A DNA stretch of 64,000 nt from Oscillospiraceae bacterium (GTDB lineage Bacteria; Bacillota; Clostridia; Monoglobales; WRAG01): contig WRAG01000001.1 in assembly GCA_009780345.1 (NCBI GenBank), forward strand, positions 7,267 through 71,266, in the 5' to 3' direction. Shown one piece after another: positions 1 through 56,358 of this stretch (position 1 is the stretch's first letter; the number at the start of each line of letters is the position of its first letter). The notes beneath the pieces were generated by a model that made no database searches, had not been told where the DNA came from, and worked only from the letters and a program-made list of their open reading frames with translations. Position numbers and translations under genes: made by a program.

Positions 1-136
1 ACGGCTCGTTTGCCGTAACATTTTTAATCCCCACCGCGCTCTTCTCATCCATTTCAACAATTTTATCCACCAGCAAAAACGGGTACCTATGCGGAATAAT
101 TTCTTGAATCTGTTCGTTCGTAAGTATTGTTTCCAT
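1..136 (-). CDS. fabZ: 3-hydroxyacyl-ACP dehydratase FabZ, N-terminal fragment (gene continues past window start)
   Basis: Reverse translation from ATG at 136-134 gives [45 protein letters not shown], which carries the Fab[12 protein letters not shown] signature. AAGGA RBS lies upstream. Too short for the ORF track. Confidence 0.8.
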
Positions 137-169
137 ATTTTCAAATCCTTTAATAATAATTTATTTTTA

Positions 170-684
170 ATATGTCAAGGACTAGCCCTTGACAATCCCA
201 CAAGTTTTTGCGCGGGAAAAACTTGACTAAAACCGTCGCCCTCCCCGTCGCGACCCTTCCCGACAAAAAGCGTCGGGCGGGTGCCCCGCTGACGGAACCG
301 CGGGCGAAAGTTACTGCAAACATAGCGCGTTCTGTACAAACAACATCTCGCGCTTTCAGGCGCGGGTCAGTTTCGAACGAGCGCGGCGTTATATCTCGGT
401 ACTTTTTCCGCGAACGCGGCTAGCTAACCCAGCTTTTATGTCGCCGCTTGCGGCACAAATCGCGGGGTTTGCGTTTGTGACCGCCAGGCGACCGGGATTG
501 GCAAGGGCAGAGCCCTTGTCGCCCGTCCGGCAGGACACAATGCCCACAGAGCCCCGCTCTGAATAATGGGTTCAAGGGCAAAGCCCTAAAACCCCCGCGC
601 CCATAGGGCGCACATATGCGCTTGTCAGCGCAAGACAACCTATGCGTCTATCGACGCAAAACGGTCTAAAGGCGCGTCGCGCCT
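170..684 (+). repeat. Family C long composite palindromic repeat, copy C1 (most diverged)
   Basis: Chain of short perfect hairpins (GTCAAGGACTAGCCCTTGAC, CAAGGGCAGAGCCCTTG, GCGCCCATAGGGCGC). Shares the 53-nt block GGCGACCGGGATTGGCAAGGGCAGAGCCCTTGTCGCCCGTCCGGCAGGACACA (487-539) with C2 and C3. Fills the mreB-fabZ gap. Confidence 0.75.
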
Positions 685-1692
685 TTACTTCCTCTTCGCA
701 ATCGAATTCGACTGCAACATCGCGATATTCTCAAGCGCTTTCCCTGTCCCCATCGCAACCCGCTCAACAGCGTTGTCCACAACGATACAAGAAATTCCGG
801 TTTCCTGCTCCAAAAGTTTATCCATTCCCCAAATCATCGCGCCGCCGCCGGTCATAATCATTCCCGATTCGCTTATATCACACACAAGTTCGGGCGGCGT
901 CTTTTCAAGAACAAACTTCACCGCGTCCACAATTTGATTCGCGGTTTCCTCAAACGCCTCCAAAATTTCAGTGCTTGTCATCACAATGGTTTGCGGCAAC
1001 CCTGTTACCAAGCTTCGTCCGCGAATTTCCATGGTCTCTTCGGTCGGCTTTGGAAATACGCAGCCAACTTTAACTTTCATCTCCTCCGCGGTTCGCTCGC
1101 CGATTAAAACGTTATATTTCTTTCGTATGTATCTTATAATCGCCTCGTCAAATTTATCTCCCGCCGTCTTAATCGAACGGCTGACAACAATACTTCCAAG
1201 CGAAATAACAGCAACATCGGTCGTTCCGCCGCCGATATCAACAACCATACAACCGCACGGCTTTCCGATGTCGATTCCAACGCCGATTGCCGCGGCGATA
1301 GGTTCCTCAATCAAATACGCGCGGCTTGCGCCCGCTTGAATCGCCGCATCGATAACCGCCCGCTCTTCAACCTCGGTAACGCCGCTCGGAACGCATATAA
1401 TAATTCGCGGCTTGAAAAACCCGCGCTTCACAACCTTATTGATAAAATATTTAAGCATACGTTCGGTCATTTGATAATCTGATATAACTCCGTCACGAAG
1501 CGGCCGCACCGCGACAATATTGCCCGGCGTTCGCCCAAGCATACGCTGCGCCTCATACCCAACCGCCAAAAGCTTGTTGCTGGAGTTATCCATAGCAACA
1601 ACCGACGGTTCGTTTAAAACAATCCCTTTTCCTTTCACATAGACAAGAACGGATGCCGTTCCCAAATCAATTCCAATATCCTGACCGAACAT
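685..1692 (-). CDS. mreB: Rod shape-determining protein MreB
   Basis: MFGQDIGIDLGTASVLVYVKGKGIVLNEPSVVA..., actin-like ATPase motifs. Start moved to the internal ATG at 1692, which is preceded by GAAGGGA. Confidence 0.95.
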   Translation of the reverse strand: MFGQDIGIDLGTASVLVYVKGKGIVLNEPSVVAMDNSSNKLLAVGYEAQRMLGRTPGNIVAVRPLRDGVISDYQMTERMLKYFINKVVKRGFFKPRIIICVPSGVTEVEERAVIDAAIQAGASRAYLIEEPIAAAIGVGIDIGKPCGCMVVDIGGGTTDVAVISLGSIVVSRSIKTAGDKFDEAIIRYIRKKYNVLIGERTAEEMKVKVGCVFPKPTEETMEIRGRSLVTGLPQTIVMTSTEILEAFEETANQIVDAVKFVLEKTPPELVCDISESGMIMTGGGAMIWGMDKLLEQETGISCIVVDNAVERVAMGTGKALENIAMLQSNSIAKRK

Positions 1693-1748
1693 AATACATC
1701 GTTTCCCTTCGTTTAAATTTACAATTTTCCAATATAAATATATCACTA

Positions 1749-4700
1749 CTATTCAACGTTGTCAACATTTATCAACATATTATTTTCAAAAAAGTAAAGA
1801 TATTTCTCCCCAACTTCCATCTCCAATATCTCCGCCAACCCGCGCGCGTAGTATTCAAGCGCGGTTTTATACTCCTTCGCCCGCGCAAAAACGCTGTTAT
1901 CACTCACTTTGTCAGTCTTATAATCAATGATAACCAACTTCCCATTTTCAACGAAATAGCAGTCCACAACCCCCTGAACCAATATCTCTTCCCCGCTATG
2001 AACATAGTTCGATAACTCCGGCAAAATCTCCGCCGCCGGAACTTTCATGTAAAACTTGACTTCCTTCTGAATCTCCCGCGCCGCTCGAACGCGCAACCCG
2101 AGCGGCGACTCAAAAAACCTCGCAACCGCCGCAACATCCACCGCGCCCGCCTGCTCGTTCGTCAACATTTCAGACCGAACCATTTTCGCAAGCTGCTCTC
2201 GAATCTCCTCAACACTTCCGACATTCCGCTCGTCCAAATGCTGCATAACAAAGTGAGTGATAACTCCCCGCTGAACTCCCGACAGTTCAGCGGTTTGATA
2301 CTCAAGTTTGGGCGGTGTATAACCGCTCTGCCGGGTGCTCAACACCAAATCTTGACGGTCATTTTGATGCATAGCGGCGTCATCGTCACTTGAAGTACAT
2401 AAAGTACATCTGCGCTCCTCTTCCTTGCTCTGCATTCCAAATGCCTCGCCAATATTTTGGCGTTGAGCACCCGGCAGAGCGGTAAAATACGGCACAGAAA
2501 CATCGTCCTCCGCCATCTGTTGCCGCTTAATCTCGCTAACCGATAGCTTTACAGGGATTTTATTCAAATGTCCGTAAGGATATACGAAATCTTCGTAGTT
2601 TTCCTCAACCGCTTCATCTGATTGCGGGGCGTCGAGGACGCCGCCCCCTACAACCACCGCAAATTCCGCGGAATCATTGATGTTAACCTCTCGAAACTCC
2701 GCAAACGGGCAACTCTCAACCACAGGAACAATCCAATCCAAGTGCGACTTCGCCGTCGCCGCGGAATACGGCGAGAGTTTATCGTCAATTGTAAAGCTTA
2801 TTTTCGCCTGCCGTGACTCGAAATGCCGATCCGGCGTGCCGATAATAAGTAACTTCTCCTTCGCCCGCGTAATCGCGACATACAAAAGCCGCATTTCCTC
2901 CGAAATCATATCTTTCCGCTTCCAAAACGCGACAACGTCCCGCGCAACCGACGGATACTGCACGCGCCGCGCCGGGTCGATATAATACCCGCCGATTCCG
3001 CAATCAGCATGCCATAAAAACTTCGGATGCGTAATATCCTGCGTAAAAAACGTCTTGCCGGCGCTAAGCATAATAACGATAGGGAATTCCAGCCCCTTTG
3101 ACGTATGTATGCTCATAATCCGCGCCACGTTTTCGCTCTCCGACACAATTTTCGCCAGCGACAAATCCCGCCCTTCCGCAATCAGCGTATTTATAAAGTG
3201 ATTAAAGCTGAACAACCCTTTAAACCGCGACTGTTGAAACTCCCCCGCCCGCTCGAACAAAAGCCGCAAGTTCGCTTGCATTCTCTCGCCGCCCTGCAAT
3301 GTTTTTACGTGCTCGTAAAATCCGAACCTCTCATAGATATGCCAAATCAGCTGGTCAACGCCAAGCTCGGCGGACAAGTCACGCAACTGCTCAAGCTCCG
3401 CTATAAATTCCATACATCGAACGCTTCCGCCGTCAGCCGCCTCGGTCAAAGCGATATAGAACGGCATATTTTTCCGCTTGTTACACAAGCGAATCTCCGC
3501 AAGCTCGTCCGGCTCAAACCCGAACATCACACTCCGCAAAACTGCGATCAGCGGAATATCCTGCAACGGATTGTCGATAATTTGCAAGAACGATAGAATC
3601 GTCGCGACTTCCCACTTATCAAGATAACTCTCGCCCACGTCGGCGTAGGCGGGGATGTTTGCCGCAAACAATTGCTGTTCAATGGATTTGGCGATTCCGC
3701 CTTTGACCGAGCGAGAGAGAATCGCGAAATCACGATACGTCGCGGGGCGCAATTCGCCGCTTACTTTGTCGGTGACAAGCACTTCTTTGTTGTCAATAAT
3801 TTCGCGAATCCGTTTCGCGGCAAAAATCGCCTCTCTATCGATTTTTTCTAAATCCTCGTCAGAGTTTTTTGTTGCTTCGGTTGACATAATTGATTCGTCT
3901 CTGTTTACATAATTTTCGCCGTCATTTTTTTCGGTTTTTATGTCAACCATCGTGTAAACTTCGGTGGTAAGATTGTTATTTCGATCGTCAGAAAGCGGAT
4001 ATTCCGCGCCGCGAATAAGTTCCTCATCGGCGGTATAGTTAACATCCCCCACCGTCGCCGACATCGCCGCGCGGAATATAAAATTGGCGAAATCGATAAT
4101 ATTATCACGACTTCGAAAGTTTTTGTAAAGCTTGATTAGGCGCCCTTGCGAATCTTCATGCTTATACGCGTGATACCGTTCCAAAAACAGCGTCGGAACC
4201 GCGCCGCGGAACTGGTATATACTTTGCTTAATATCGCCGACCATGAAAATATTGCGATCATCCCGCGAAATCGCTGTAAATATCTCGTTTTGCAGCGAGT
4301 TTATATCCTGATACTCGTCTATCAAAATTTCGCAATATCGTTTAGAAAGCTGCGCCGCCAGCGGCGTGCGCTCGCCCGATTTGCGAAGCAGCAGGCGCAG
4401 CATTTCATGCTCCAAGTCGTTGAAATCCAGCATGTTGCGCTCCAGCTTTTTCCGCTTATATCGCCGCTCGAACGCGATTACAAGTTTAACCAGCGCAGAT
4501 AGCGCGGGAACGGTTTTGGAGATATATCCAACCGAAGATTCCGCGTCGAAAGAGGTAAGGTCGTAAAGTTCGCCGAATTTTGCCTTTGGCATAACTTTCG
4601 AACGCCCGTTTTTCAGCTCTTTTAGCGCATTTATGCTATTGATTATCTCGCCGTAACTATCGTTCGGCATATCTTCATACATCAAGAGCAAATCCGAATC

Positions 4701-6311: not shown

Positions 6312-6383
6312 CCCTTTGGTTTGTGCTATTTACGGGCGGCCAATGACCGCCCCTACAAGATATTGTAACATATGAAGTAATAA

Positions 6384-6413
6384 TTGACAATAGGATTGTG
6401 GGAATGGTATAAT
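6384..6413 (+). promoter_or_regulatory. Sigma-70-type promoter (TTGACA, 18-nt spacer, TGgTATAAT)
   Basis: TTGACA at 6384-6389 and TATAAT at 6408-6413 with a TG extension, upstream of the 6438 CDS. Confidence 0.55.
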
Positions 6414-6437
6414 TGGTTTGTTAAAGGAGGAGATATC

Positions 6438-6620
6438 ATGTCTTGTGTGAAAACGTGCGCATGCCCTAAAACGACTTGCCCGAATCACGGCAAATGTTGC
6501 GAATGTGTTGCAAATCATAGAGAAAAGGATAGTTTGACGTTTTGCTTATTCCCCGACAATGGCGGGGATAAAAGCGTGAAAAATTATTATAAGAAGCTGA
6601 AAGAACGGTTTGAAGGATAA
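6438..6620 (+). CDS. Small cysteine-rich protein, unknown function
   Basis: MSCVKTCACPKTTCPNHGKCCECVANHREKD... AGGAGG RBS precedes ATG 6438. The ORF-track N-terminal extension was discarded. Confidence 0.7.
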   Translation: MSCVKTCACPKTTCPNHGKCCECVANHREKDSLTFCLFPDNGGDKSVKNYYKKLKERFEG

Positions 6621-6649
6621 TAGTATCAAATAGAGGGAGGACTTTACAT

Positions 6650-7639
6650 ATGAAAATTCGAATCGGCATTTGCGGTTACGGCAATTTGGGCAGGGGCGCG
6701 GAGGCGGGAATCGCGCAAAACCCCGACATGGAACTTGTCGCGGTTTTTACCCGCAGAAAGCCTGTCGAATCGCTGAAAATCAACTCTGACGTGCCTGTGG
6801 TTCATGTTAGTGATGTTGAATATTGGAAAGATAAAATCGACGTGATGATTCTGTGCGGCGGAAGCGCGAATGATTTGCCCGAACAGACGCCGACGTTTGC
6901 GAAAATCTTTAATACGGTGGATAGTTTCGACACGCATGCCAAAATTCCCGAATATTTCAAAACAGTAGACGCCGCGGCGGTTGCGGGCGGCAAAATTTCG
7001 ATTATATCTATCGGCTGGGATCCCGGATTGTTTTCGGTAATGAGATTGTACGCCGGAGCGGTGCTTCCGAGCGGCAATACCTATACATTTTGGGGGCCCG
7101 GCGTAAGTCAGGGGCATTCGGACGCGATTCGGCGAATTGACGGCGTGGCTGACGCGATTCAGTATACGATTCCCGTTGACGAAGCGGTTGAGCGAGTTAA
7201 AAGCGGCAAAAAAGTTGAGTTCGAAACCCGAGAAAAACACAAAAGAGTGTGTTATGTGGCTGTGGATTCTATATGTGGCGATGAGGACAAGGCAAGGATT
7301 GAAAAAGAGATTAAGGAAATGCCGAATTATTTTGCGGATTATGATACGACGGTTAATTTTATTTCGCAAGATGAGCTTAGAACGAATCACGGCAAGCTTA
7401 TGCACGGCGGGCAGGTGATACACGCCGGCAAGACGAGGGATAATAACAATCAGGTTATCGAATTTTCGCTTAAACTGGACTCGAATCCGGAATTTACGGC
7501 GTCGGTGCTTTTAGCCTATGCGCGGGCGGCATATAGGCTGTCGGCTACGGGCGAGAAAGGCGCGCGAACGATATTCGATATACCACCGATATTACTCTCG
7601 GGCAGGGATAGGGACGATGTGGTTAGGGATTTGTTGTAG
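6650..7639 (+). CDS. ddh: meso-Diaminopimelate D-dehydrogenase
   Basis: MKIRIGICGYGNLGRGAEAGIAQNPDMELVAVFTRR...GWDPGLFS...WGPGVSQGHSDA, typical Ddh sequence. GGAGG RBS. Confidence 0.9.
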   Translation: MKIRIGICGYGNLGRGAEAGIAQNPDMELVAVFTRRKPVESLKINSDVPVVHVSDVEYWKDKIDVMILCGGSANDLPEQTPTFAKIFNTVDSFDTHAKIPEYFKTVDAAAVAGGKISIISIGWDPGLFSVMRLYAGAVLPSGNTYTFWGPGVSQGHSDAIRRIDGVADAIQYTIPVDEAVERVKSGKKVEFETREKHKRVCYVAVDSICGDEDKARIEKEIKEMPNYFADYDTTVNFISQDELRTNHGKLMHGGQVIHAGKTRDNNNQVIEFSLKLDSNPEFTASVLLAYARAAYRLSATGEKGARTIFDIPPILLSGRDRDDVVRDLL

Positions 7640-9819: not shown

Positions 9820-10659
9820 ATGTTCGACAACATCAAAGGACAGGAAAAAGCCAAAGAATTACTGACGCGCGCGTTGAACGACGGAAAAGTCGGGCACGCT
9901 TATATTTTCGAGGGCGCGAGCGGAACCGGAAAGCTTGATATGGCGCTTGCGTTCGCCGCCGCGATTACGGGGGTAGACGATGTAACTTCCAGCCCCGATA
10001 TACGCATTATCACCAACGAATTATACGACTCATCGAAAGCGGAGCAGAAGCAGTTGTCGGTCGATACCGTGCGGCACATGAAAGCGGAGGTTTATATCAA
10101 ACCATACGGCGAGCGGAAAGTTTATATTATCCCAAACGCGGACACGAAAACGACCGCGTCGGCGTTTATAGCGATGCAAAACAGCTTGCTGAAAGTGTTT
10201 GAAGAGCCGCCGGGATATTGTACCATAATACTTCTTGCCGAGAACGCGAACATGTTTTTGCCGACAATTTTGTCCCGCGCGGTGGTTATAAAATTTTCGC
10301 CTCTTGACAAAGATGAATATATGCGGTATCTTTTAACTGATGAAGGCGTTTCAACTCTGCGTGAGGATACGATAAAATATATGGGGCAACTGATGGGCGG
10401 AAGTTACGCCGCGGCATACGATTTTATTGCGTATGCAAAGAAGAATAAGAAGAGCAGCGGTGCGATTCTTGAAATTATAGGCTTATATTTGAACGATTTG
10501 CTTCATGAACGGAAGATAGACGCACAAACGGCGGTCGGAATGCTTGATGTATACTTGAAATATCACAAAATGATCGCCGCGAACGGGAATTATAACGCGT
10601 GTATTGAATGTATGCTGTTAGGAATTTTAGATGAAGTTAAGCAAAACTACAATAAATAA
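9820..10659 (+). CDS. holB: DNA polymerase III subunit delta prime
   Basis: GHAYIFEGASGTGK... and SRAVVIKF motifs. The holB-ricT order is typical of Firmicutes. Confidence 0.85.
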   Translation: MFDNIKGQEKAKELLTRALNDGKVGHAYIFEGASGTGKLDMALAFAAAITGVDDVTSSPDIRIITNELYDSSKAEQKQLSVDTVRHMKAEVYIKPYGERKVYIIPNADTKTTASAFIAMQNSLLKVFEEPPGYCTIILLAENANMFLPTILSRAVVIKFSPLDKDEYMRYLLTDEGVSTLREDTIKYMGQLMGGSYAAAYDFIAYAKKNKKSSGAILEIIGLYLNDLLHERKIDAQTAVGMLDVYLKYHKMIAANGNYNACIECMLLGILDEVKQNYNK

Positions 10660-11925: not shown

Positions 11926-12452
11926 GTTTTTGCCGCCTGCGGCGGCGGGCTTAAAACTTTTTCAGCGAAGTCGCTGTAGCATTTGCGCTTGTCAGCGCAG
12001 GACGACAAGGGTGTGTTGACACCCTTGTCAAGCCCCAAAAATTTTTTAACAAAAAATTTAGTAAAACTGGCGGCGCAAACGCGCTATGGCGCTATTAAAA
12101 GCGCGCCGCTTATTGAGGACTGCAAACAATATCCTCTCAACGAAGTATCTACGGCGGCAAAAGCCGCATGCTCGACTGAAACGGCGTTTTATCTTGCTAG
12201 TCTTTCCGCGAATGCGGTTCGCTAACCCTGTTTTTTCGTCGCCGGCTTTGGCGTTTGTGTCCATAGGCGACCGGGATTGGCAAGGGCAGAGCCCTTGTCG
12301 CCCGTCCGGCAGGACACACGCCCTCGGGACGGATCCGAAAAAGCACGCGCCCGCAGGCGCAAAAGCCTGCCGTCGCAGCGGCAAAAATGGGTTTTAGGGC
12401 AGCGTCCTACATCCCCGCGCCGTGGCGCAAAAACTAGGCCAAAGCCCTAAAG
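11926..12452 (+). repeat. Family C long composite palindromic repeat, copy C2
   Basis: Colinear with C3 (inverted) and C4 over several hundred nt (…GACAAGGGTGTGTTGACACCCTTGTC…GGCGGCAAAAGCCGC…GGCGACCGGGATTGGCAAGGGCAGAGCCCTTGTCGCC…). Ends in GCCCTAAAGGAGC, which provides the next gene's RBS. Confidence 0.85.
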
Positions 12453-14278: not shown

Positions 14279-14383
14279 ATTTGCATCAAATTGCGTGAGG
14301 TTTTGCAGAAAACGCACGGGAGCGTGTATATAAGATACCCGACCGGGCGTTTTCGGCGAAAGATTGCGTAATTTCATGCAAAT
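14279..14383 (-). repeat. Family A repeat (A2 core), inverted
   Basis: TTTGCATCAAATTGCGTGAGG...GGGAGCGTGTATATAAGATACCCGACC...TTGCGTAATTTCATGCAAA. Confidence 0.85.
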
Positions 14384-14404: not shown

Positions 14405-15256
14405 ATGTTAGTTACTGGTAATGAGATACTACAACACGCGCATAAGAATAGGTATGCGGCACCCGCGTTTAACGTGGTAAACATGGAAATGCTTCAAGCG
14501 GTAATCGCCGCGGCGGAAGCGGAGAAAGCGCCGGTTTTGGTGCAAACTACCGAGGGCGCGCTGAAGTACGCGGGAATCAAATATTTAAGTTTGATGATTC
14601 GCTATGCGGCGGAGAACGCGAAAGTTCCGGTTGCGTTTCACTTAGATCATGGAACGACTTTCGAGACGGCGATTCAATGTGTTCGCAACGGTTGGACATC
14701 GGTTATGATTGACGGATCGCACCATTCGTTGGAGGAAAATATCGCGTTGACAAAAAGTGTGACAAAAGTTGCGCACGCTTGCGGAGTGTCGGTTGAGGCG
14801 GAACTTGGACGACTTGGCGGCGTTGAGGATAATATCGTCGTTGACGAGAAAGACGCAATGCACACCAATCCTGCCGAGGCAAAGCAGTTTGTCGCTGAAA
14901 CTAAGGTGGATTATCTTGCAATCGCTATCGGAACGGCGCACGGAAAGTATAATGGAGTTCCGAAACTTGACTTTGACAGACTTGATACGATTAAGAAAAT
15001 GCTTGATATGCCGATCGTTCTTCACGGCGCGTCGGGTGTCGCGGAAGATGATATCAAAAAAGCGATCTCGCTTGGAGTTAACAAAATCAATATCGACACA
15101 GATTTGCGGGTTGCGTTTACCGACGCGGTAAAAGACGTGTTCGCTAAAACGCCGGACGAATTTGACTTGCGCAAAATTTGCGGCCCCGGTCGGGACGCGG
15201 TAAAAGAAGTTGTCGCGGCGAAAATGAGGTTATTTGGGGCGTCTAATAAAGCATAA
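14405..15256 (+). CDS. fba: Class II fructose-1,6-bisphosphate aldolase
   Basis: YAAPAFNVVNME...HLDHG...MIDGSH...AIGTAHG...LHGASG motifs. Confidence 0.95.
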   Translation: MLVTGNEILQHAHKNRYAAPAFNVVNMEMLQAVIAAAEAEKAPVLVQTTEGALKYAGIKYLSLMIRYAAENAKVPVAFHLDHGTTFETAIQCVRNGWTSVMIDGSHHSLEENIALTKSVTKVAHACGVSVEAELGRLGGVEDNIVVDEKDAMHTNPAEAKQFVAETKVDYLAIAIGTAHGKYNGVPKLDFDRLDTIKKMLDMPIVLHGASGVAEDDIKKAISLGVNKINIDTDLRVAFTDAVKDVFAKTPDEFDLRKICGPGRDAVKEVVAAKMRLFGASNKA

Positions 15257-15826
15257 ATGTTTTTGAGCCGCCACGGCGGCGGGTTTTTAGGGCTTTGCCC
15301 TAAAAACCCATTTGTTCGGGTCAGACCCAGAAGCTTGTGTCCTGCCGGACGGGCGGTAAGGGCTCTGCCCTTACCAATCCCGGTCGCCTATGGACGCAAA
15401 CGCCAAAAAGCGGCGATTTGCGCCAAAGCCGGCGACGATAAAAGCATTGGTTAGCGAACCGCGTTCGCGGAAAGACTAGCGAGATATAGCACTGTTTCGA
15501 TCGAGCATGCGGCTTTTGCCGCCGTAGTTATTTGACTAATACCGTATATGTTTGCACTATTTTAGCGGCGCGTTTACAATAGCGCGAAAGCGCGTGTGCG
15601 CTGCAAGTTTGGTAAAACTTTTTAAAGTTTTTTGGGGATTGACAAGGGTTTCAATAAACCCTTGTCGTCCTGCCCTGACAAGGGCAAAAAGCTGCAGAGC
15701 CTCGCTCTGAAAAAGGGTTTTTAGGGCATTCGCCCTAAAAAAACCCGCGCCCATTGGGCGCAAGAATTTTGATAAAACTTTTTCCAAAAGTTTTTAGGTT
15801 TTTAGGGCAAGGCCCTAAAAAAGGAG
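15257..15826 (-). repeat. Family C long composite palindromic repeat, copy C3 (inverted relative to C2/C4)
   Basis: Reverse complement is colinear with C2. Hairpins include GGGTTTTTAGGGCTTTGCCCTAAAAACCC, GACAAGGGTTTCAATAAACCCTTGTC and GCGCCCATTGGGCGC. Ends in GCCCTAAAAAAGGAGG just before ATG 15834. Confidence 0.85.
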
Positions 15827-18160: not shown

Positions 18161-20461
18161 CTACACATCCTTCATCGTCAGCGAAATCCTCATCTTCGCG
18201 ACATCAACATCAAGAACTTTCACTTTCACTATATCACCGACGGCGACAACGTCCATCGGGTGTTTTACAAATTTGTCCGCCAACTGCGAGATATGGACAA
18301 GCCCGTCTTGGTGAACGCCAACATCCACGAACGCGCCGAAGTCAATAACGTTGCGCACCGTACCTGTCATAATCATTCCGGGTTTCAAATCCTTGATATC
18401 CATAACATCGTCGCGCAAAACCGGCTGTTCAATATCATCGCGCGGATCTCGTCCCGGTTTTTGCAGCGATTCGACAATGTCACGTAAAGTGGGAACGCCG
18501 ACTTCGATTTCTTCTGCAAGCTTTGTCATATCAGCGCGTTCAGCCTTTTCTTTTAGCAGCACAAGCTTGCCGGCGTTCACGTCGTCCATCGTATATTCCA
18601 ATTTTTCAAGCAACTTTTCTGCCGCGGCGTATGACTCGGGGTGAACCGACGTGTTGTCGAGTATATTTTTCCCTGCGGAGATTCGCATAAATCCCGCGCA
18701 CTGCAAAAACGCTTTCGCGCCAAGCTTTGCAACCTTTAAAAGCTCTTTTCGCGTCTTAAATGCGCCAACTTCCTCGCGGTATGCCACAATATTTTTCGCC
18801 ACCGTTAAATTTATCCCGGAAATATAGCTCATAAGCGCGTAGGACGCGGTGTTTAGGTCAACTCCGACATCGTTTACGCAATCTTCGACAACGCCACCCA
18901 ACGCCTCGCCCAACCGTTTCTGATTTACGTCATGCTGATACTGCCCGACGCCCACGTTTTGCGCGTCGATCTTTACAAGCTCGGCAAGCGGATCTTGCAA
19001 CCGCCGACCGATTGAAATCGCGCCACGGATTGTTACGTCAAAATCGGGGAACTCCTCCGCGCCCTGCTTTGATGCCGAATAAATTGACGCGCCTGCCTCG
19101 TTGACAATTGCGTATTTCACGTCGCTAAAACCGAACTCTCGAATCGTTTCGGCAATAAAAATTTCGCTCTCTTTCGACGCCGTGCCGTTGCCGATTGCGA
19201 TTAGCGTTACGCCATGTTTGTCTACCATTCGTTTAACGAACTTCTTCGCCTCAGCGATGCGGGCGTCTGATTGTGTTGGATAAATCACGCCGCTATCAAG
19301 CACTTTCCCCGTTTCGTCCACAACCGCCATTTTGCAGCCCGTTCGATATCCCGGGTCAAGCGCAAGCACAACTTTCCCTTTGATTGGCGGCTGCATAAGC
19401 AGGTTTTTCAAGTTTTCCTTGAATACCTTTATCGCTTGCTCTTCCGCAACAACCGACAGTTCCCCGCGGATTTCGTTGGCGATGGAAGGTTCAATCAGCC
19501 GTTTATAGCTATCCTCGACGGCAGCTTCGACATAGCTCGTGGTGATCGAAAATGTTTCACGTGAAACATCGTCACGACAAACTGCGCTTTGCTCGTTTTC
19601 GGACACAAACCGTCCGAAAAGCTCACTCGCTTCGTTGTCGCTCCTCTTTCCCAAAACGTCCACTTCGTTGGGGCGTTTTGGGAGCTCTTTTAAAATCTTC
19701 CTTTTCAAATATGCCAAAATTTTATCAATCGGCGGATCAATTTTGACGTTTAGAAATTCTTCTTTCTCACCGCGGTTGATCGCCAAAACTCTGTGCGGCT
19801 GCACTTTGCAAACCGGCTCGGAATATTCATAATACAGCCGATAAACGCTGTCCTCCTCTTTTGCTGCTTTCGATTCAAGCGTTCCGTCACGGAAAGTTAC
19901 ATCGCGGATAGCCTTTCTAAACTCCGCGTTATCCGAAACGTCCTCGGCGATAATATCGCACGCTCCCGCAAGCGCGTCCTCGGCGGTTTTGACTTCAAGC
20001 CCCTCTTTTACATCGTCGCCTACGTTAATATATTCGCTTGCGATTTCTAAAATGTCGCCGTCGACAAGTTCCTGCGCCATCAAAATTTCAGCAAGCGGCT
20101 CAAGCCCGCGTTCCCGCGCAATCATTGCGCGTGTGCGACGTTTGGGTTTGTACGGACGATAAATATCTTCGATTTCGGCAAGTTTCTCCGCTTTATCGAG
20201 GGCGGCGTTGATTTCGTCGGTCATTTTGCCTTGTTCGTCGATTAGGCGGCGAACTTCCTCGCGGCGATCGTTGAGATTGCGTAAGTAAGTAAGCCTGTCG
20301 AATACGTCGCGAAGCGTAACATCGTCAAGTTCGCCGGTTGCCTCCTTTCGATAGCGGGCAATGAACGGAATGGTGTTTCCGTCGTCGATAAGCTCGACAA
20401 ACGCCTCTATTTGCTGGCGTTTTAGATTGAATTCTTGCGTTAAAATTTGTATGATATCCAT
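18161..20461 (-). CDS. tex: Transcription accessory protein Tex (S1 RNA-binding domain protein)
   Basis: 766 aa. N-terminal Tex domain (IPFIARYRKE), YqgF-like and HhH domains, C-terminal S1 domain (GTVRNVIDFGAFVDVG). Confidence 0.93.
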   Translation of the reverse strand: MDIIQILTQEFNLKRQQIEAFVELIDDGNTIPFIARYRKEATGELDDVTLRDVFDRLTYLRNLNDRREEVRRLIDEQGKMTDEINAALDKAEKLAEIEDIYRPYKPKRRTRAMIARERGLEPLAEILMAQELVDGDILEIASEYINVGDDVKEGLEVKTAEDALAGACDIIAEDVSDNAEFRKAIRDVTFRDGTLESKAAKEEDSVYRLYYEYSEPVCKVQPHRVLAINRGEKEEFLNVKIDPPIDKILAYLKRKILKELPKRPNEVDVLGKRSDNEASELFGRFVSENEQSAVCRDDVSRETFSITTSYVEAAVEDSYKRLIEPSIANEIRGELSVVAEEQAIKVFKENLKNLLMQPPIKGKVVLALDPGYRTGCKMAVVDETGKVLDSGVIYPTQSDARIAEAKKFVKRMVDKHGVTLIAIGNGTASKESEIFIAETIREFGFSDVKYAIVNEAGASIYSASKQGAEEFPDFDVTIRGAISIGRRLQDPLAELVKIDAQNVGVGQYQHDVNQKRLGEALGGVVEDCVNDVGVDLNTASYALMSYISGINLTVAKNIVAYREEVGAFKTRKELLKVAKLGAKAFLQCAGFMRISAGKNILDNTSVHPESYAAAEKLLEKLEYTMDDVNAGKLVLLKEKAERADMTKLAEEIEVGVPTLRDIVESLQKPGRDPRDDIEQPVLRDDVMDIKDLKPGMIMTGTVRNVIDFGAFVDVGVHQDGLVHISQLADKFVKHPMDVVAVGDIVKVKVLDVDVAKMRISLTMKDV
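19553..19568. promoter_or_regulatory. parS: parS site (inside tex coding sequence)
   Basis: TGTTTCACGTGAAACA, a perfect 16-bp palindrome matching the Firmicutes parS consensus tGTTNCACGTGAAACa. Confidence 0.8.
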
Positions 20462-20488: not shown

Positions 20489-20504
20489 TGTTTCACGTGA
20501 AACA
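20489..20504. promoter_or_regulatory. parS: parS site in the tex/parA divergent intergenic region
   Basis: TGTTTCACGTGAAACA lies 6 nt upstream of the parA -35 box. Confidence 0.85.
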
Positions 20505-23992: not shown

Positions 23993-24478
23993 CCCTAAAA
24001 CCGCGAGGTTGTCTTACGCTGACAAGCGCATATGTGCGGCTGCTGCCGCAGAGCGATAAGGACTTGTCGAAGCCCTTGTCAAGCCCCGAAAAACTTTAAA
24101 AAGTTTTATCAAACAGGCGGCGCAAACGCGCTTTCGCGCTATTAAAAGCGCGCCGCTACAAAAGGACTGCAAACAAATTGCACATCAATTAAGTAACTAC
24201 GGCGGCAAAAGCCGCCATCTTGAGCAAAAATTCGTCCCGCGCCTAGAAGCGCGAGATATTGTTTGGTTAGGAGTGAGTTGATTGCACTTGCTTCCGCGCC
24301 ACGTGCGCTCGGTTTTTGAGCGTGTTCGTGAGCGCGGCGCTTTTGATCAAACTTTTGGCGCACAAAAGTTTGCTGGATTGTCAAGGACTGGTCCTTGCCG
24401 CGTCTGCGCGTGCCCGCGCAAAGCCTGCCGCCGTAGCGGCAAAAACTCGCGCCCGTTGGGCGCAAAAAGGAGCAATCT
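23982..24478 (+). repeat. Family C long composite palindromic repeat, copy C4
   Basis: Begins with hairpin TAGGGC-GGTA-GCCCTA, which contains the serS stop codon. Colinear with C2 (…CCCTTGTCAAGCCCC…GGCGGCGCAAACGCGCT…GGCGGCAAAAGCCGCC…). Ends GCGCCCGTTGGGCGCAAAAAGGAGC before the thyA ATG. Confidence 0.85.
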
Positions 24479-25310: not shown

Positions 25311-25611
25311 TTTGCGTGAAATCACGCAATCTTCCGCCGAAACTTCACCCACGAAAAATCCTCAACGTACCATTTGTACGCCTGCGGAAACAAGACGCCA
25401 TTAAAAGTTTTGTGAAACAAAACATACATAAATGGCGTTTCAACGGCGGTTTTTGCCGTTCTTTTTCGGGGCTCGTTTCGGCGGAATCTGGGAGAGTTGT
25501 CAAAAACTTGTTTTTGCTAACAACTCCCCTGTGAAAACTGCCCAAGAGAGCAAGGCGATTTTTGCCGCCGCTTAATTGGCTGCAGTTGACCACCACGCAA
25601 TTTGACGCAAA
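25311..25611 (+). repeat. Family A repeat, composite (A1 core with nested insertions including module F)
   Basis: Starts TTTGCGTGAAATCACGCAAT directly after the thyA TAG and ends CACGCAATTTGACGCAAA before the folA RBS. The interior carries GGGAGAGTTGTCAAAAACTTGTTTTTGCTAACAACTCCCC, which is also seen at 40426 and 54117. Confidence 0.85.
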
Positions 25612-30392: not shown

Positions 30393-31116
30393 TTTTCTTA
30401 CTCCTCATTACTGTAATCATAAATTTCGGAAGTGCCATAAACCTACCTATTCTTGACGGTTGTTTTAGTAAACGGTAGAACCATTCAAGATTTAGTTTTA
30501 TAAATATCTTCGGCGCGCGTTTTACGTTGCCGGCAAATACGTCAAGCGCGCCGCCGAGACCTAGCGCTAATTTTACATTTAATTTATCGCGATTCTCGTA
30601 TATCCATTTTTCCTGTTTCGGCGCGCCGAGGCAGGCGAATAAGATGTCAGCGTTTGATTGATTGATTTGTTCGATAATTTCCGGTGTTTCTTCGTCTTTG
30701 AAATATCCGTTTCGGGTTCCGGCGATTTTTAAGGTTGAATGTTTTTCGATCAACTTTTCCGCCGCGGTATCGGCGATATTTGGAGCGGCGCCGAATAAGA
30801 ATATTGATTTTCCGGCTTGCGACGCGTATTCTATTAAAGCGGTTGCCAAATCAAAGCCGGCGACACGCTCGACAAGCGGCGTTTTTAATATTTTCGCGCC
30901 GTAAACAACCCCGATTCCGTCAGGCGTACAGATTGACGCGGAATTTAGGATATTTTCGAAGGTTTCGTCGTTACGCGCAAGCATAATGATTTCGGGATTT
31001 GGGGTAAATATCATGTCCGTTTCATTCGTTTCAATCAATGATTTTGCTTTTTCAAAAGTATCGTTAAAACTTAGATTATCAATATTTACGCCCAGTATGT
31101 TTATCTTATTATTCAT
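30382..31116 (-). CDS. tagA: WecB/TagA/CpsF family glycosyltransferase
   Basis: ILGVNIDNLSF...TPNPEI...CLGAPKQEKW...LEWFYRL motifs. Confidence 0.88.
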   Translation of the reverse strand: MNNKINILGVNIDNLSFNDTFEKAKSLIETNETDMIFTPNPEIIMLARNDETFENILNSASICTPDGIGVVYGAKILKTPLVERVAGFDLATALIEYASQAGKSIFLFGAAPNIADTAAEKLIEKHSTLKIAGTRNGYFKDEETPEIIEQINQSNADILFACLGAPKQEKWIYENRDKLNVKLALGLGGALDVFAGNVKRAPKIFIKLNLEWFYRLLKQPSRIGRFMALPKFMITVMRSKKIGR

Positions 31117-31461
31117 ATAGTTTCACCGTTTAACATTGTAGCACATTATTTCAGAAAATTCAACATATTATTATATAAAATAAATATAAACTTTTATAGT
31201 TGTAGTAGTAATAATGGTGTTAAAAATGTTGATAAGTGTATGAATGTGTTTTAAAGTATGAAAAAATTATGTATAAAACTTGTGGATTGTTTGTAAAAGA
31301 TATAAACATCATAGATATAGTATTTTTGTAAAAAGTTATGCACAAGTTATTGAGGTTGATAGTGTTCATTGTGTGCAGTAAAAAATTTAAAAAATGTTAT
31401 TGTATTTTGTAGAATTATATGATAAACTTAAATGAATACAAATAAAAAAGGAAGTGGACAT
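31117..31461. other. oriC: Putative chromosomal origin region (oriC-like AT-rich gap upstream of dnaN)
   Basis: 345-bp non-coding gap at a divergent gene-orientation switch. It is very AT-rich (9 G/C in nt 31141-31200). DnaA-box-like 9-mers are TTATGCACA (31336-31344), TGTTGATAA (31227-31235) and TGTGGATTG (31281-31289). Confidence 0.55.
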
Positions 31462-40403: not shown

Positions 40404-40792
40404 AATTGGCACATTTTGAATTTTTGGGAGAGTTGTCGAAAACTTGTTTTCGCTAACAGCTCCCCTGCAAGGCTTTCCAAAGAGCATGAGTCGTTTGTTG
40501 ACGAAGTGCGATTTGCTGAAAGCTACTGCCGCCCACTTGCGTACTTTGTGTACGCGGCGTGGCAGGGCGCGCAAAAGCGGCGCGGCTTTAAATGAGACTT
40601 GGCTTTGCTGATTTTTGCAAAGTCATAGCCGAATTATGCAGGGGCGTAACATTTTGTAAAACAAAATGCACAGCCATCTGCCAAAATTCAAACTGCACGC
40701 AATTTGACGAAAATATGAGATTTGGTTTCACGCAATTTGACGCAAATTTTAGGAATTTGACAAAAATGTGGAATTTGGGTTTATGCAATTGA
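40404..40792 (+). repeat. Family B repeat, large composite (B core with nested modules F and G, plus extra A-type right-end half-sites)
   Basis: AATTGGCACATTTTGAATTTTT, then module F (GGGAGAGTTGTCGAAAAC...), CCCACTTGCGTACTTTGTGTACGCGGCGTGG, then module G (TTTAAATGAGACTTGGC...), AAAATTCAAACTGCACGCAATTTGACGAAAA, TCACGCAATTTGACGCAAA. Confidence 0.88.
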
Positions 40793-45649: not shown

Positions 45650-45881
45650 TTTGCGTGAAACTACGCACATTTTGGATTTTTCGCTCCCTTGCGTGCAAGG
45701 GCTCCCGCAAAGTCGGTTTGTGACTTTGTGGGAAAAAGGAGCAACAGCGCAATATGCGAAATTTTCGGACGGTTTTTGTCCGAAAACGAGTAAGGTGGAG
45801 CTTGTTGTGACGGCGGCGGGACACAGCGCGCCCAAAATCGGCGCGGCATCAAAATCCAAACTGCACGCAGTTTAACACAAA
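45650..45881 (+). repeat. Long family B variant framed by family A-type ends (B ends plus module E core)
   Basis: Starts directly after the rpsN TAA with TTTGCGTGAAACTACGCA fused to CATTTTGGATTTTT. The core is ...CAAGGGCTCCCGCAAAG...GGGAAAAAGGAGCAAC... It ends AAAATCCAAACTGCACGCAGTTTAACACAAA. Confidence 0.88.
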
Positions 45882-47995: not shown

Positions 47996-48228
47996 TTTGT
48001 CTGAACTTGGCATATTTTGAATTTTTCGCCCTCTTGCGTACAAGGGTTCCCGAAACGCCCCAACGAAGTGGACGTTTTGGGAAAAAGGAACAACAAACGA
48101 AGTGTTCGAGCTTTTCAGACGGTGTTTGTCTGAAAACGAGTGAAGCGAAGTTTGTTGTGACGGCGGCGAGGCACAGCGCGCAAAGACAGCGCGGCTCCAA
48201 AATTCAAACTATGCTCAATTTCAAACAA
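47996..48228 (+). repeat. Long family B variant (B ends plus module E core)
   Basis: TTTGTCTGAACTTGGCATATTTTGAATTTTTCGCCCTCTTGCGTACAAGGGTTCCCG...GGGAAAAAGGAACAAC...CCAAAATTCAAACTATGCTCAATTTCAAAC. Colinear with 45650 and 56130. Confidence 0.85.
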
Positions 48229-54086: not shown

Positions 54087-54294
54087 TTTTCGCGAAATTG
54101 GCACATTTTGAATTTTTTGGCGAGTTGTCGAAAACGAGTTTTCGCTAACAACTTCCCTGCAAGGCTTTCTAAAGAGTACGAGTCGTTTGTTGACGAAGTG
54201 CGATTTGCTGAAAGCTACTGCCGCCCTCTTGCGTACTTTTGTACGCGGCGTGGCATAGCGGGCAAAAAATCCAAACTGCGCTCAATTTCACAAA
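54087..54294 (+). repeat. Family B repeat with nested module F
   Basis: TTTCGCGAAATTGGCACATTTTGAATTTTTT, then module F (GGCGAGTTGTCGAAAACGAG..., colinear with 40426-40527), CCCTCTTGCGTACTTTTGTACGCGGCGTGG, AAAAAATCCAAACTGCGCTCAATTTCAC. Confidence 0.88.
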
Positions 54295-56129: not shown

Positions 56130-56358
56130 TTGCGCCAAATTACGCACATTTTGGATTTTTCCGCCCCCTTGTGTACAAGGGCTCCCGCAAAGTCGGTTTG
56201 TGACTTTGTGGGAAAAAGGAGCAACAACGGAACATGCGAGGTTTTCGGACGGGTTTTGTCCGAAAACGAGCAAAGTGGAATTTGTTGTGACGACGGCGGT
56301 GCATGGCGCCCAAAAGCGGCGCGGCGTTAAAATCCAAACTGCACGCAATTTGACACAA
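56130..56358 (+). repeat. Long family B variant framed by family A-type ends
   Basis: Starts directly after the rpoA TAG with TTGCGCCAAATTACGCACATTTTGGATTTTT. Contains ...GTACAAGGGCTCCCGCAAAGTCGG...GGGAAAAAGGAGCAAC... and ends AAAATCCAAACTGCACGCAATTTGACACAA. Colinear with 45650-45881. Confidence 0.88.

Follow-up and report, generated by a model that had tools for sequence, protein, structure and literature searches.

Repeat systems of the REP/BIME and REPIN-RAYT type are mostly proteobacterial. REP/BIME sequences are described, in the passage of PMC2817692 that defines them, as extragenic palindromic units arranged in mosaics, and the features of MITEs have been set out in two reviews (PMC10969869, PMC2229807). 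In Streptococcus pneumoniae, the BOX, RUP and SPRITE repeats become sparser in the sister species, are absent beyond it and have been judged parasitic; their turnover is slow, and no cognate transposase is known for BOX (PMC3049150). Here we describe family C, a previously undescribed repeat of an uncultured Clostridia lineage, with four copies in the 64,000-nucleotide stretch of DNA analysed in this work (the window). These are probably lineage-specific, large, non-coding, palindrome-rich interspersed repeats that form a non-autonomous mosaic of the MITE, BIME and pneumococcal BOX kind, and family C looks like an oversized mosaic relative of such repeats rather than a new RNA gene.

An initial annotation had described four related, non-coding and hairpin-dense regions located between housekeeping genes, and self-BLAST (down to E 1e-81) agreed with this description. 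The copies entirely fill the spacers between MreB and the next gene, ferredoxin and an Asp23-like gene, FBA aldolase and a hexapeptide transferase, and SerRS and ThyA, and the flanks are unrelated housekeeping genes. C1 (170-684, + strand, A'+B subtype) occupies the whole spacer 3' of MreB, with its core at 174-539 and a series of short GC palindromes after it; the copy was recognised by an nhmmer match to model positions 20-351 (154 bits) and by BLAST matches to C3 and C2, and the same locus is present in L016 (7436-7916) with 99.8% identity. C2 (11926-12452, + strand, A+B subtype; core 11985-12319, nhmmer 350 bits, positions 1-351) is bordered by the ferredoxin terminator on one side and by the ribosome-binding site of the Asp23-like gene on the other, and is missing about 20 nt that form the 5' half of hairpin H9. 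C3 (15257-15826, - strand, inverted A+B subtype; core 15335-15685, nhmmer 381 bits) is near-palindromic when the extended element is considered, being bounded by hairpins GGGTTTTTAGGGC-N3/6-GCCCTAAAAACCC at 15281-15309 and about 15715-15744. C4 (23982-24478, no strand assigned) is a composite foldback, identified by nhmmer, BLAST and arm alignment, in which an A arm (24036-24227, +; model positions 1-192, 168 bits) and an inverted A' arm (24269-24399, -; model positions 20-151) stand head to head, without the B half. In the self-BLAST of the window C2 matched C3 with 76.4% identity over 420 nt (inverted, E 1e-81), C1 matched C3 with 71% over 321 nt, C4 matched C2 and C3 with 77-79% over about 185 nt, and the right part of C4 matched the left part of C1 with 63% over 191 nt (inverted). 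The proposed colinearity is therefore true of C2 and C3, over the whole core, but not of C1, whose left arm has diverged, nor of the composite C4, and the four copies are better described as mosaics of arms A or A', half B and short palindromic units. No additional copy was found by self-BLAST or nhmmer in the 26-64 kb part of the window. Family C measures 350-570 nt including its ~350-nt core and has no coding capacity, as indicated by indels of 1 and 2 nt that break the frame from one copy to another. The repeats give rise to spurious ORFs of 80-108 aa.

The unit of the family is the ~350-nt core, with about 12 local hairpins and a very uneven conservation along its length. At least two versions of the left arm exist, different in sequence but equal in architecture (A in C2 and C3, A' in C1), and the right half B terminates in a nearly invariant block of ~55 nt, the most conserved one, located by pattern matches at 12265-12319 (+) in C2 and also at 486-540 (+) and 15335-15389 (-). 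This block consists of aGGCGACCGGGATTGG, hairpin H10 (GGYAAGGG CAGAG CCCTTRYC), GCCC, hairpin H11 (GTCC GGCA GGAC) and ACA, and a 43-nt pattern within it occurred 3 times in the window vs 0 in 100 shuffles. Hairpin variants in 32 copies included GGCAAGGG/CCCTTGTC, GGTAAGGG/CCCTTACC, .../CCCTTGCC, .../CCCTTATC and ATTAAGGG/CCCTTAAT, and in L031 the H11 stem GTCC/GGAC is replaced by GACC/GGTC. In the arm, hairpin H1 (12004-12029, + strand) is formed by GACAAGGG-loop-CCCTTGTC followed by AAGCCCC, with perfect 11-bp stems; it is found at 15641-15666 (-) in C3 and, as H1', at 173-194 in C1. H1 (GACAAGGG..CCCTTGTCAAKCCC) is the inverted counterpart of H10, so that the core carries terminal inverted repeats, although imperfect ones, in which H1 (GGACGACAAGGG..CCCTTGTCAAKCCC) mirrors the reverse complement of H10 (GGACGGGCGACAAGGG..CCCTTGCCAATCCC). 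The core ends pair at long range, the outer units are mirrored too, and in a B'' variant the end is formed by an inverted H2-H1 arm of about 75 nt. Short GC palindromes (TAGGGC-N3-GCCCTA, GCCGCC-N3/4-GGCGGC, GCGCC-N-GGCGC and CAGAGC-N-GCTCTG) surround the core; their number varies and their order is mirrored. Some invariant blocks, such as TACGGCGGCAAAAGCCGC and TCTTTCCGCGAAYGCGG, lie outside the stems. All the shared blocks and the inverted outer arms listed by the initial annotation were present, as was the compensatory stem change that it reported (CAAGGG/CCCTTG vs TAAGGG/CCCTTA). The heptamer GCAGGAC, which flanks the core on both sides, was considered as a target-site duplication and rejected because its right copy is constant and its left copy variable.

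Family C extends beyond the window, and the flanking genes were not duplicated along with the copies. With a strict 24-base pattern, 27 additional metagenome contigs of the same and sister species were recovered, all of them true loci, and nhmmer gave 76 matches, about 25 of them near full length. Altogether, roughly 35-40 distinct sites between housekeeping genes were found in contigs of these species, in addition to the four in the window. The occupied spacers mostly lie between co-directional genes, and with respect to the flanking genes 8 copies were sense, 9 antisense, 2 divergent and 1 convergent, in agreement with the two orientations noted previously. The proposal of a dispersed repeat instead of a single-orientation ncRNA gene is thus supported; its mobility part is something that we infer. 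Regarding known families, the search against Rfam 15, including OLE, GOLLD, ROOL, HEARO, raiA and IS605-orfB, gave zero matches at the gathering score across the window, and within the copies none at E<=10 (window 1-26 kb) and none at E<=5 (six copies at five loci, a search in which a TPP riboswitch and a tRNA were recovered as positive controls). A BLAST of C3 against plasmids and phages gave no match, and viral contigs scanned with the pattern CCGGGATTGG-N14-22-GCCCGTCCGGCAGG gave 0 matches. The same pattern gave four matches in genome contigs; the two whose surroundings were read (L001 and L002, the latter in a reading frame) lie in unrelated sequence that lacks a family C context, and the other two fall in Alphaproteobacteria. 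No transposase, RAYT, invertase or RT was found in the window or among the checked ORFs, and no repeated coding sequence among about 400 kb of lineage contigs. As candidates for an autonomous partner, the ORFs between inverted copy pairs (L007, L018, L031) turned out to be ordinary genes, and those checked elsewhere in the window encode housekeeping functions (DnaN, RecF, the ribosomal operon, SecY, FtsK).

Comparison with relatives, which the initial annotation had proposed, revealed presence/absence differences at orthologous sites. The spacer between the ferredoxin and Asp23-like genes is an empty site of 68 nt in L043 but has a length of 577 nt in the window and of 1070 nt in L042, where the orthologue of C2 lies at 6345-7124, and the FBA spacer measures 81-120 nt in L045 and L046. 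No direct repeat was found at the filled/empty junctions (window or L042 vs L043, and L045) nor in the L008/L012 pair, and a fixed outer boundary was undefinable at every site compared. C2 is 95.1% identical between the window and L042 vs 72-75% at four-fold sites of the flanking genes, and the L020 and L026 copies are 95.9% identical vs 70-74%, whereas paralogous copies differ by 15-25%. Conservation above four-fold sites would not be expected for a decaying selfish insertion, and it leaves standing a minority reading in which family C is not junk: it would be a host-maintained multi-hairpin cassette, under purifying selection at each locus and working in either orientation, as an RNA processing, termination or stability module, as a DNA structural or recombination site or as an invertible switch, and it would also serve as a landing pad for site-specific mini-elements. 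We consider this reading unlikely. Purifying selection as read from orthologue identity is weakened because the same two genomes are also 89-98% identical in other short spacers.

A more specific version of host maintenance, which we regard as doubtful, is that family C is a structured RNA module, either a multi-copy ncRNA or a cis-acting element in operon transcripts, whose fold is under purifying selection at each locus. Counting non-overlapping perfect stem-loops with stems of >=5 bp, and using dinucleotide shuffles and equal-length coding DNA as controls, we found 10-14 per region (13 in C1 vs 3.8±1.5 in its shuffles), compared with means of 3.8-5.0 (±1.5-1.8) in shuffles and 2-7 in coding DNA, which supports the hairpin chain described initially. 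Folding z-scores reached -9.2 for C3 (DNA parameters) and -7.6 for C2 (RNA parameters). Covariation in the local helices is strong, which counts for the interspersed-repeat reading as well as for an RNA module: double changes affect 20 of the 97 predicted pairs vs 8.6±1.9 in shuffles (0/500), 95.4% of cells at predicted pairs are paired (36-40%, with 1-2 pairs, in slid controls), and H1 shows compensatory changes in 8 of its 12 pairs across 8 copies. Compensatory differences were also found between the orthologous arms upstream of thyA in L037 and L039. The architecture shared by arms A and A' despite their different sequences, the invariant unpaired blocks and the conservation of two independent orthologous pairs point in the same direction. 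Against an RNA function, sense and antisense copies are equally frequent, and no conserved sigma-70-like promoter was found in the core on either strand, nor any conserved terminator framing the copies. Moreover, neither strand folds better than the other (-117.3 vs -119.0 kcal/mol by RNAalifold) and G-U vs A-C counts are symmetrical in well-supported helices, so no strand of function can be assigned. Truncations, arm swaps, foldbacks and insertions of 65-170 nt inside the core are tolerated, the conservation contrast is shared with other spacers, and the family has no Rfam relative. One long-range helix predicted by RNAalifold (52-55/318-321) was dropped because it lacks covariation.

Family C copies also host four smaller repeat families (D, E, F and G), nested at fixed positions. 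Element E was found in at least 11 copies at the same site (TCTTTCC^GCGAA) and in the same relative orientation; it is absent from C2 in the window and present in its L042 orthologue. A recurrent breakpoint at model position 216, initially a candidate recombination hotspot, is explained by this insertion. At least six repeat families have colonised spacers of the lineage, among them spacers within the ribosomal-protein operon. Insertion at a fixed position and orientation with minimal duplication is typical of single-stranded DNA transposition that targets hairpins, and the nested mini-elements, with at most 1-2 nt duplicated, conform to it. Family C itself could be moved as single-stranded DNA by an HUH/Y1 enzyme acting on its hairpin ends, in which case the copies would be REPIN- or PATE-like derivatives, of unusual size, of an IS200/IS605- or RAYT-type system. 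The same conserved stem (CAAGGG/CCCTTG) at both ends while other stems drift, the lack of target-site duplication at the sites compared and the REP-resembling GC palindromes around the core are in accordance with this explanation, which we nevertheless judge rather unlikely. The ends match best as inverted rather than direct repeats, and the orientation of the copies is unbiased with respect to the flanking genes; at 11.9-24.5 kb, a segment that lies on one side of the GC-skew switch, copies point both ways. In addition, the DNA examined yielded neither a Y1 nor a TnpB gene, nothing matched the HEARO or IS605-orfB RNA families, and known REPINs are several times shorter than the core.

Orthologous spacers further differ in what they contain. 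Inverted or different occupants were found in L008/L012, L014/L031, L023/L030, L020/L026 and window C3 vs L042, and sister species carry truncated or solo arms and swapped arm types; for instance, only an inverted arm is found upstream of thyA in L037-L039, with an HTH_3 ORF to its left. In the first three pairs the occupant has the opposite orientation between colinear flanking genes, which, together with the inverted repeats that bound the core and the location of copies directly upstream of ribosome-binding sites, could indicate invertons, in which a site-specific invertase would flip the core and change expression of the downstream gene. This is quite improbable. Two of the three inverted pairs are not simple flips because their arm subtype differs too, and L008/L012 also show a rearrangement of the outer palindromic units. 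Furthermore, no promoter inside the core nor any nearby invertase gene was found, and window-strain contigs from four samples all had a single orientation. Contigs retrieved through the hexapeptide-transferase protein were 100% identical to the window, a search for within-strain polymorphism through MreB found nothing, and same-strain contigs break inside C3. Lastly, an origin by chance hairpins or by local segmental duplication of four spacers, to which the position of all window copies within 25 kb could have pointed, is practically negligible, being refuted by E-values down to 1e-81, unrelated flanks and dozens of copies dispersed at other loci.

The best reading of these data is that both the action and the rearrangement of family C take place at the DNA level, and that its transcription is passive. 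As a non-autonomous interspersed repeat, it may spread as DNA through a putative trans-acting enzyme that would recognise the hairpin ends shared by H1 and H10. Recombination or template switching between the palindromic units, which are both direct and inverted repeats, could then reshuffle the copies, producing inversions, exchanges of arms and foldbacks of the C4 type. Without a promoter of its own, the element would be transcribed together with its neighbours, and its hairpins in either orientation might act in transcripts as terminator-like, stabiliser-like or processing structures. Selection for hairpins that serve mobility or tolerance, correction within palindromes, or both would keep the stems paired. 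Since neither a target-site duplication nor a sharp boundary nor a transposase was found, we can only infer this mobility mechanism. The same negative results weigh against the interspersed-repeat reading, as do the high identity of orthologous copies, the uneven conservation along the core with its invariant non-stem blocks and the length of the conserved core, which at ~350 nt greatly exceeds that of REP/BIME units.

Nested insertions that are specific in position and orientation, such as element E, constitute a natural system for hairpin-targeted insertion, and the inverted or swapped occupants of orthologous spacers one for palindrome-driven rearrangement. On the practical side, repeats like family C break short-read assemblies. 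If the above-neutral conservation reflects selection, family C is a candidate functional structured element, and if the host-maintained cassette were the true explanation it would represent a new class of large structured intergenic element.

With respect to known systems, family C shares with the IS200/IS605 PATEs and the TnpB/IscB omega-RNA ends the subterminal hairpins at both ends, the lack of target-site duplication and structured non-coding DNA that is hundreds of nt long, but it differs in having inverted instead of direct ends, no HEARO or IS605-orfB match, no tnpA or tnpB nearby and no strand bias (8 sense vs 9 antisense), which speaks against PATE-type strand-specific insertion. It resembles REP/BIME and REPIN sequences in its GC-rich extragenic palindromes, alternating-orientation mosaics, high copy number and stems kept by compensatory change; however, REP units measure 20-40 nt and BIMEs are regular REP pairs, whereas here the short palindromes decorate a long core, which is the defining repeated unit. 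As in MITEs (Correia, ERIC, RUP, Nezha), the copies are small, multi-copy, non-autonomous, ORF-free and intergenic, have terminal inverted repeats, occur in both orientations and fold into long hairpins, although target-site duplication, sharp termini and a parent IS were not found and their length and complexity are at or beyond the upper end described for prokaryotic MITEs. As regards the earlier alternatives of a large non-autonomous element or a BIME-like cluster, family C combines features of MITE and BIME and falls outside the strict definition of each. BOX is similar in being a non-coding, modular, structured and intergenic repeat of a Firmicute that is co-transcribed with its neighbours, and in the way its density falls in the sister species and drops to nothing beyond it (PMC3049150). 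There is no apparent sequence relationship, and BOX is built as boxA-boxB(n)-boxC from modules of 45-60 nt, whereas family C has a fixed core, alternative arms, foldback derivatives and nested smaller repeats. With family C, the short list of interspersed repeats known from Firmicutes gains a very large member with a complex internal structure.

Self-BLAST, a conserved 43-nt pattern, stem-loop counts and folding z-scores all bear out the proposal of the initial annotation that family C comprises four related, hairpin-rich spacer elements. Each copy makes up an entire spacer: C1 (170-684, +) between MreB and the next minus-strand gene, C2 (11926-12452, +) between the ferredoxin and the Asp23-like ATPase gene, C3 (15257-15826, -) between the class-II FBA aldolase and the hexapeptide transferase, and C4 (23982-24478) between SerRS and ThyA. 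C2 aligned with inverted C3 at 76.4% over 420 nt (E 1e-81), C1 with C3 at 71% over 321 nt, C4 with C2/C3 at 77-79% over about 185 nt, and the right part of C4 with the inverted left part of C1 at 63% over 191 nt. The colinearity claimed for all four copies is complete for C2 and C3 and incomplete for C1 and C4, which is the one correction to the observation; the interpretation given there was largely right. The 43-nt pattern occurred three times in the window and never in 100 shuffles; the regions held 10-14 non-overlapping perfect stem-loops each (3.8-5.0±1.5-1.8 in shuffles, 2-7 in coding controls of equal length), and z-scores were -9.2 for C3 (as DNA) and -7.6 for C2 (as RNA). Self-BLAST and nhmmer found no family C relative at 26-64 kb of the window.

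The host is uncultured and belongs to Clostridia; the best named relatives of its SerRS are Ruminococcaceae/Oscillospiraceae MAGs (72-75% identity), and an ENA metagenome contig is identical to window 4405-25256. A strict pattern gave four matches among 185,579 representative genomes, two of them in Alphaproteobacteria; the two that were read, L001 and L002, are set in unrelated sequence and have nothing of family C around them. The same pattern had no match in viral contigs and found 30 metagenome loci, 27 of them true members, which come from three JGI samples; only one of these loci, L016, overlaps the window (1-2725, 99.9%). With nhmmer, the window and metagenome loci yielded 76 hits, about 25 near full length, and BLAST clustering gave 43 element-bearing sites, roughly 35-40 once orthologous duplicates were removed. 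Family C is thus the dispersed multi-copy repeat that had been suspected, set among ordinary genes (ABC transporters, TyrRS, TruB, Asd and others). In other samples, short-read contigs of the window strain break off within C3, as expected for such a repeat. BLASTN with C3 found no match among 72,556 plasmids or 50,697 phage records.

Two MAFFT alignments, one of twelve copies including their flanks and one of eight clean copies (A2), defined a core of ~350 nt, made up of arm A (C2, C3) or A' (C1) and a right half, B. It opens with H0, a variable GC hairpin, followed by H1 (GACAAGGG-loop-CCCTTGTC) and AAKCCCCGAAAA, the A/T hairpin H2, the long GC hairpin H3 with an inner hairpin, TGCAAACA, H4 with invariant GGCGGCAAAAGCCGC at its top, H5, H6 (CCGCGAAYGCGG) and TTCGCTAACC, H8 and H9 inside a GTCGCC...GGCGAC stem, H10 (GGYAAGGGCAGAGCCCTTRYC) and finally H11 (GTCCGGCAGGAC). 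The core ends in imperfect terminal inverted repeats, since H1 with AAKCCC corresponds in inverted form to H10 with GGGATT. Units outside it are also mirrored (CAGAGCGAGGCTCTG, then GGGTTTTTAGGGC-N-GCCCTAAAAACCC, then GCCGCC-N-GGCGGC), and the far ends of C2 pair together in the minimum-free-energy fold. Because the A2 HMM aligns C1-type copies across positions 11-351 with 150-200 bits, A' is a diverged arm A, its hairpin order kept and its stem sequences different. A third right-half variant, B'' (10220-10380 in the syntenic relative L042; 7850-7935 in the metagenome locus L026), has at its end an inverted H2-H1 arm about 75 nt long, and in C4 an arm A meets an inverted A' arm head to head. 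ORFs of 80-108 aa cross the copies on both strands (window 11983-12225, 12058-12384, 12086-12397 and 24142-24465) and could be called by an annotation pipeline; frame-breaking indels between copies show that they are not genes.

RNAalifold predicted 97 pairs on A2, with 95.4% of cells paired. Changes on both sides affected 20 pairs, compared with 8.6±1.9 in shuffles (0/500 reached the observed value), and slid controls gave 36-40% pairing and 1-2 double-change pairs. Covariation support is located in the local hairpins H0, H1, H2, H9, H10 and H11, and the predicted long-range helix had none. In both subfamilies homologous hairpins hold the same position with different sequences, GGCGGCAAAAGCCGC being for example the counterpart of CGCGCTTTTAGGCGCG. 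The reverse complement of the alignment folds at -119.0 kcal/mol versus -117.3 for the forward strand, and G-U and A-C mismatches are about equally frequent in well-supported helices. This pattern is that of palindromic DNA repeats and gives no evidence for a single functional RNA strand. Among 20 near-full-length copies whose neighbours could be called, 8 lie sense and 9 antisense to co-directional flanking genes; the neighbours are divergent for two copies and convergent for one. A consensus scan found no conserved promoter within copies, and terminator-like hairpins were in excess on both strands (18 vs 7.4±2.7). A covariance search to exclude known RNAs (Rfam 15) gave no match at gathering score anywhere in the window, nothing at E<=10 within its family C copies and nothing at E<=5 within six further copies, in a run that detected a TPP riboswitch and a tRNA as positive controls. 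With covarying hairpins on one side and this strand symmetry on the other, a structured RNA module maintained by the host appears unlikely.

Orthologous copies are conserved above the synonymous level. Over 489 aligned nt, with nested insertions removed, the C2 orthologue in L042 shares 95.1% identity with the window copy, versus 65-85% (mean 72%; Asp23-like gene 75.5%) at four-fold degenerate sites of the flanking genes, and in the pair L020/L026 the B half is 95.9% identical versus 70-74% at such sites. Since paralogues within one genome differ by 15-25%, concerted evolution does not explain this contrast, which hints at constraint. Three other short spacers are likewise 89-98% identical between the window and L042, and recombination tracts may be the source, so we do not treat conservation as proof of function; a functional, selectively maintained structured cassette is a doubtful proposition.

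Syntenic contigs, fetched via SerRS and OGG homologues, revealed the insertion polymorphism sought in relatives. The ferredoxin/Asp23 spacer measures 577 nt in the window, 1070 nt in L042 (OGG 85-92% identical), 68 nt in L043/L044, where a terminator abuts the ribosome-binding site (OGG 73%), and 235 nt of other sequence in L045; downstream of FBA, L045/L046 have 81-120 nt without the element. No family C sequence turned up in 10.7 kb of L043 or in 20 kb of a more distant MAG. An inverted arm stands alone upstream of thyA in L037-L039, and likewise upstream of holB in L045. In the sister species L037-L039 an HTH_3 (XRE-type) ORF of 71-86 aa stands between SerRS and the arm upstream of thyA (L037 6667-6927; L038 2668-2907; L039 6696-6911); the window has no such ORF, and the left arm of C4 occupies its place. 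Six orthologous spacers could be compared. Orientation is unchanged in two, window C2/L042, where the subtype is also identical, and L020/L026, where one genome has arm A and the other A'. In L008/L012 the entire ~650-nt hairpin cluster is flipped between colinear genes, and in L014/L031 and L023/L030 arm type and orientation both differ. The FBA site is occupied in L042 by A'(+), the 5' half of B, B'' and an inverted start of A, and in the window by a complete inverted A+B. No junction examined showed a target-site duplication or a fixed outer boundary. Downstream of its FBA gene L042 has a perfect hairpin, GTCTAATAAAGCATAAA-tgttt-TTTATGCTTTATTAGAC (9850-9890); at window 15240-15265 only its 5' half is left and family C begins in the former loop, which places this junction inside a terminator-like hairpin.

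The L042 orthologue of C2 also contains insertions absent from the window copy, assigned by BLAST to four small repeat families nested in or near family C copies (L042 6477-6547, 6692-6759, 6804-6872, 6953-7021 and 6161-6330): D (about 71 nt, 8 copies), E (about 68 nt, 16 copies), F (about 69 nt, 6 copies) and G (about 105-145 nt, 16 copies, including three window copies that lie outside family C, at 25489-25593, 40409-40513 and 54101-54205). E is missing from window C2 and present in its L042 orthologue. At least 11 family C copies, with all subtypes represented, carry E at a constant site (TCTTTCC^GCGAA, the 5' foot of H6) and in constant relative orientation, with a duplication of at most 1-2 nt; insertion of E accounts for the recurrent break at model position 216. 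E provides direct evidence that site-specific insertion or excision has occurred recently in the lineage.

Other features of the window were recorded alongside. A ~77-nt repeat opening with the perfect palindrome TTGCGTGAAATCACGCAA has at least eight full copies (13268, 25311, 37058, 37522, 38350, 41116, 50445 and 54464(-)) and partial ones at 14351, 44697 and 62685; several lie in spacers of the ribosomal-protein (S10/spc/alpha) cluster, directly 3' of stop codons (L3, SecY, ThyA). The hairpin TTTTCGGAC-N7-GTCCGAAAA, possibly another small repeat or terminator type, occurs four times (19596-19620, 45762-45786, 48112-48136, 56241-56267), twice preceded by CAAAGTCGGTTTGTGACTTTG (45708, 56188). 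The Firmicute parS consensus TGTTTCACGTGAAACA has two perfect matches, one within the Tex gene (19553-19568) and one in the Tex/ParA spacer (20489-20504), adjoining parA-parB. GC skew switches sign, with a cumulative minimum, near 5-6 kb at the divergent RluD/DAPDH genes, and both orientations of family C are represented on the same side of this switch within the window. No dnaA lies directly upstream of dnaN (31432) and recF (35233); the spacer before dnaN (31116-31432) is preceded by minus-strand genes.

Family C is a non-coding repeat, dispersed and rich in palindromes, whose ends are inverted repeats. It lies in spacers in either orientation; sister species differ by its gain or loss, orthologous sites show it rearranged, and smaller repeats have colonised it. 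We favour, with moderate confidence, a reading in which it would spread as DNA through a trans-supplied enzyme recognising the hairpin shared by H1 and H10. Later reshuffling would come from recombination or template switching between its palindromic units, which, being self-complementary, act as direct and inverted repeats alike. Transcription would be passive, occurring only within neighbouring transcripts, where hairpins in either orientation may terminate, stabilise or be processed. A REPIN/PATE-like element mobilised by HUH/Y1 is really a specific mechanism within this reading, and rather improbable as such; elements of the IS200/IS605 type should show a strand bias, and family C has none. 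We consider an inverton family very unlikely. Chance or segmental duplication is refuted.

Given its comparisons with BOX, REP/BIME, MITEs, Rfam and IS200/IS605, we file family C as an interspersed repeat outside every named family. No Rfam family matches it. As MITEs do, it has inverted-repeat ends, is non-coding and is present in multiple copies, but it shows no target-site duplication. Its unusual size and conserved multi-hairpin architecture are notable, as are its nested site-specific mini-elements and the conservation of its orthologous copies beyond the synonymous level, and no evidence lifts it above selfish or tolerated intergenic repeats. REP/BIME mosaics (PMC2817692) are also close to it; it resembles BIMEs in combining short GC palindromes as a mosaic, but its defining unit is the 350-nt core, roughly tenfold a REP. 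Closest in behaviour are the pneumococcal BOX/RUP/SPRITE elements, which are modular, highly structured and co-transcribed with their neighbours. One species has them in abundance, its sister species has fewer, and they are missing outside these two; they have been judged parasitic with slow turnover (PMC3049150).
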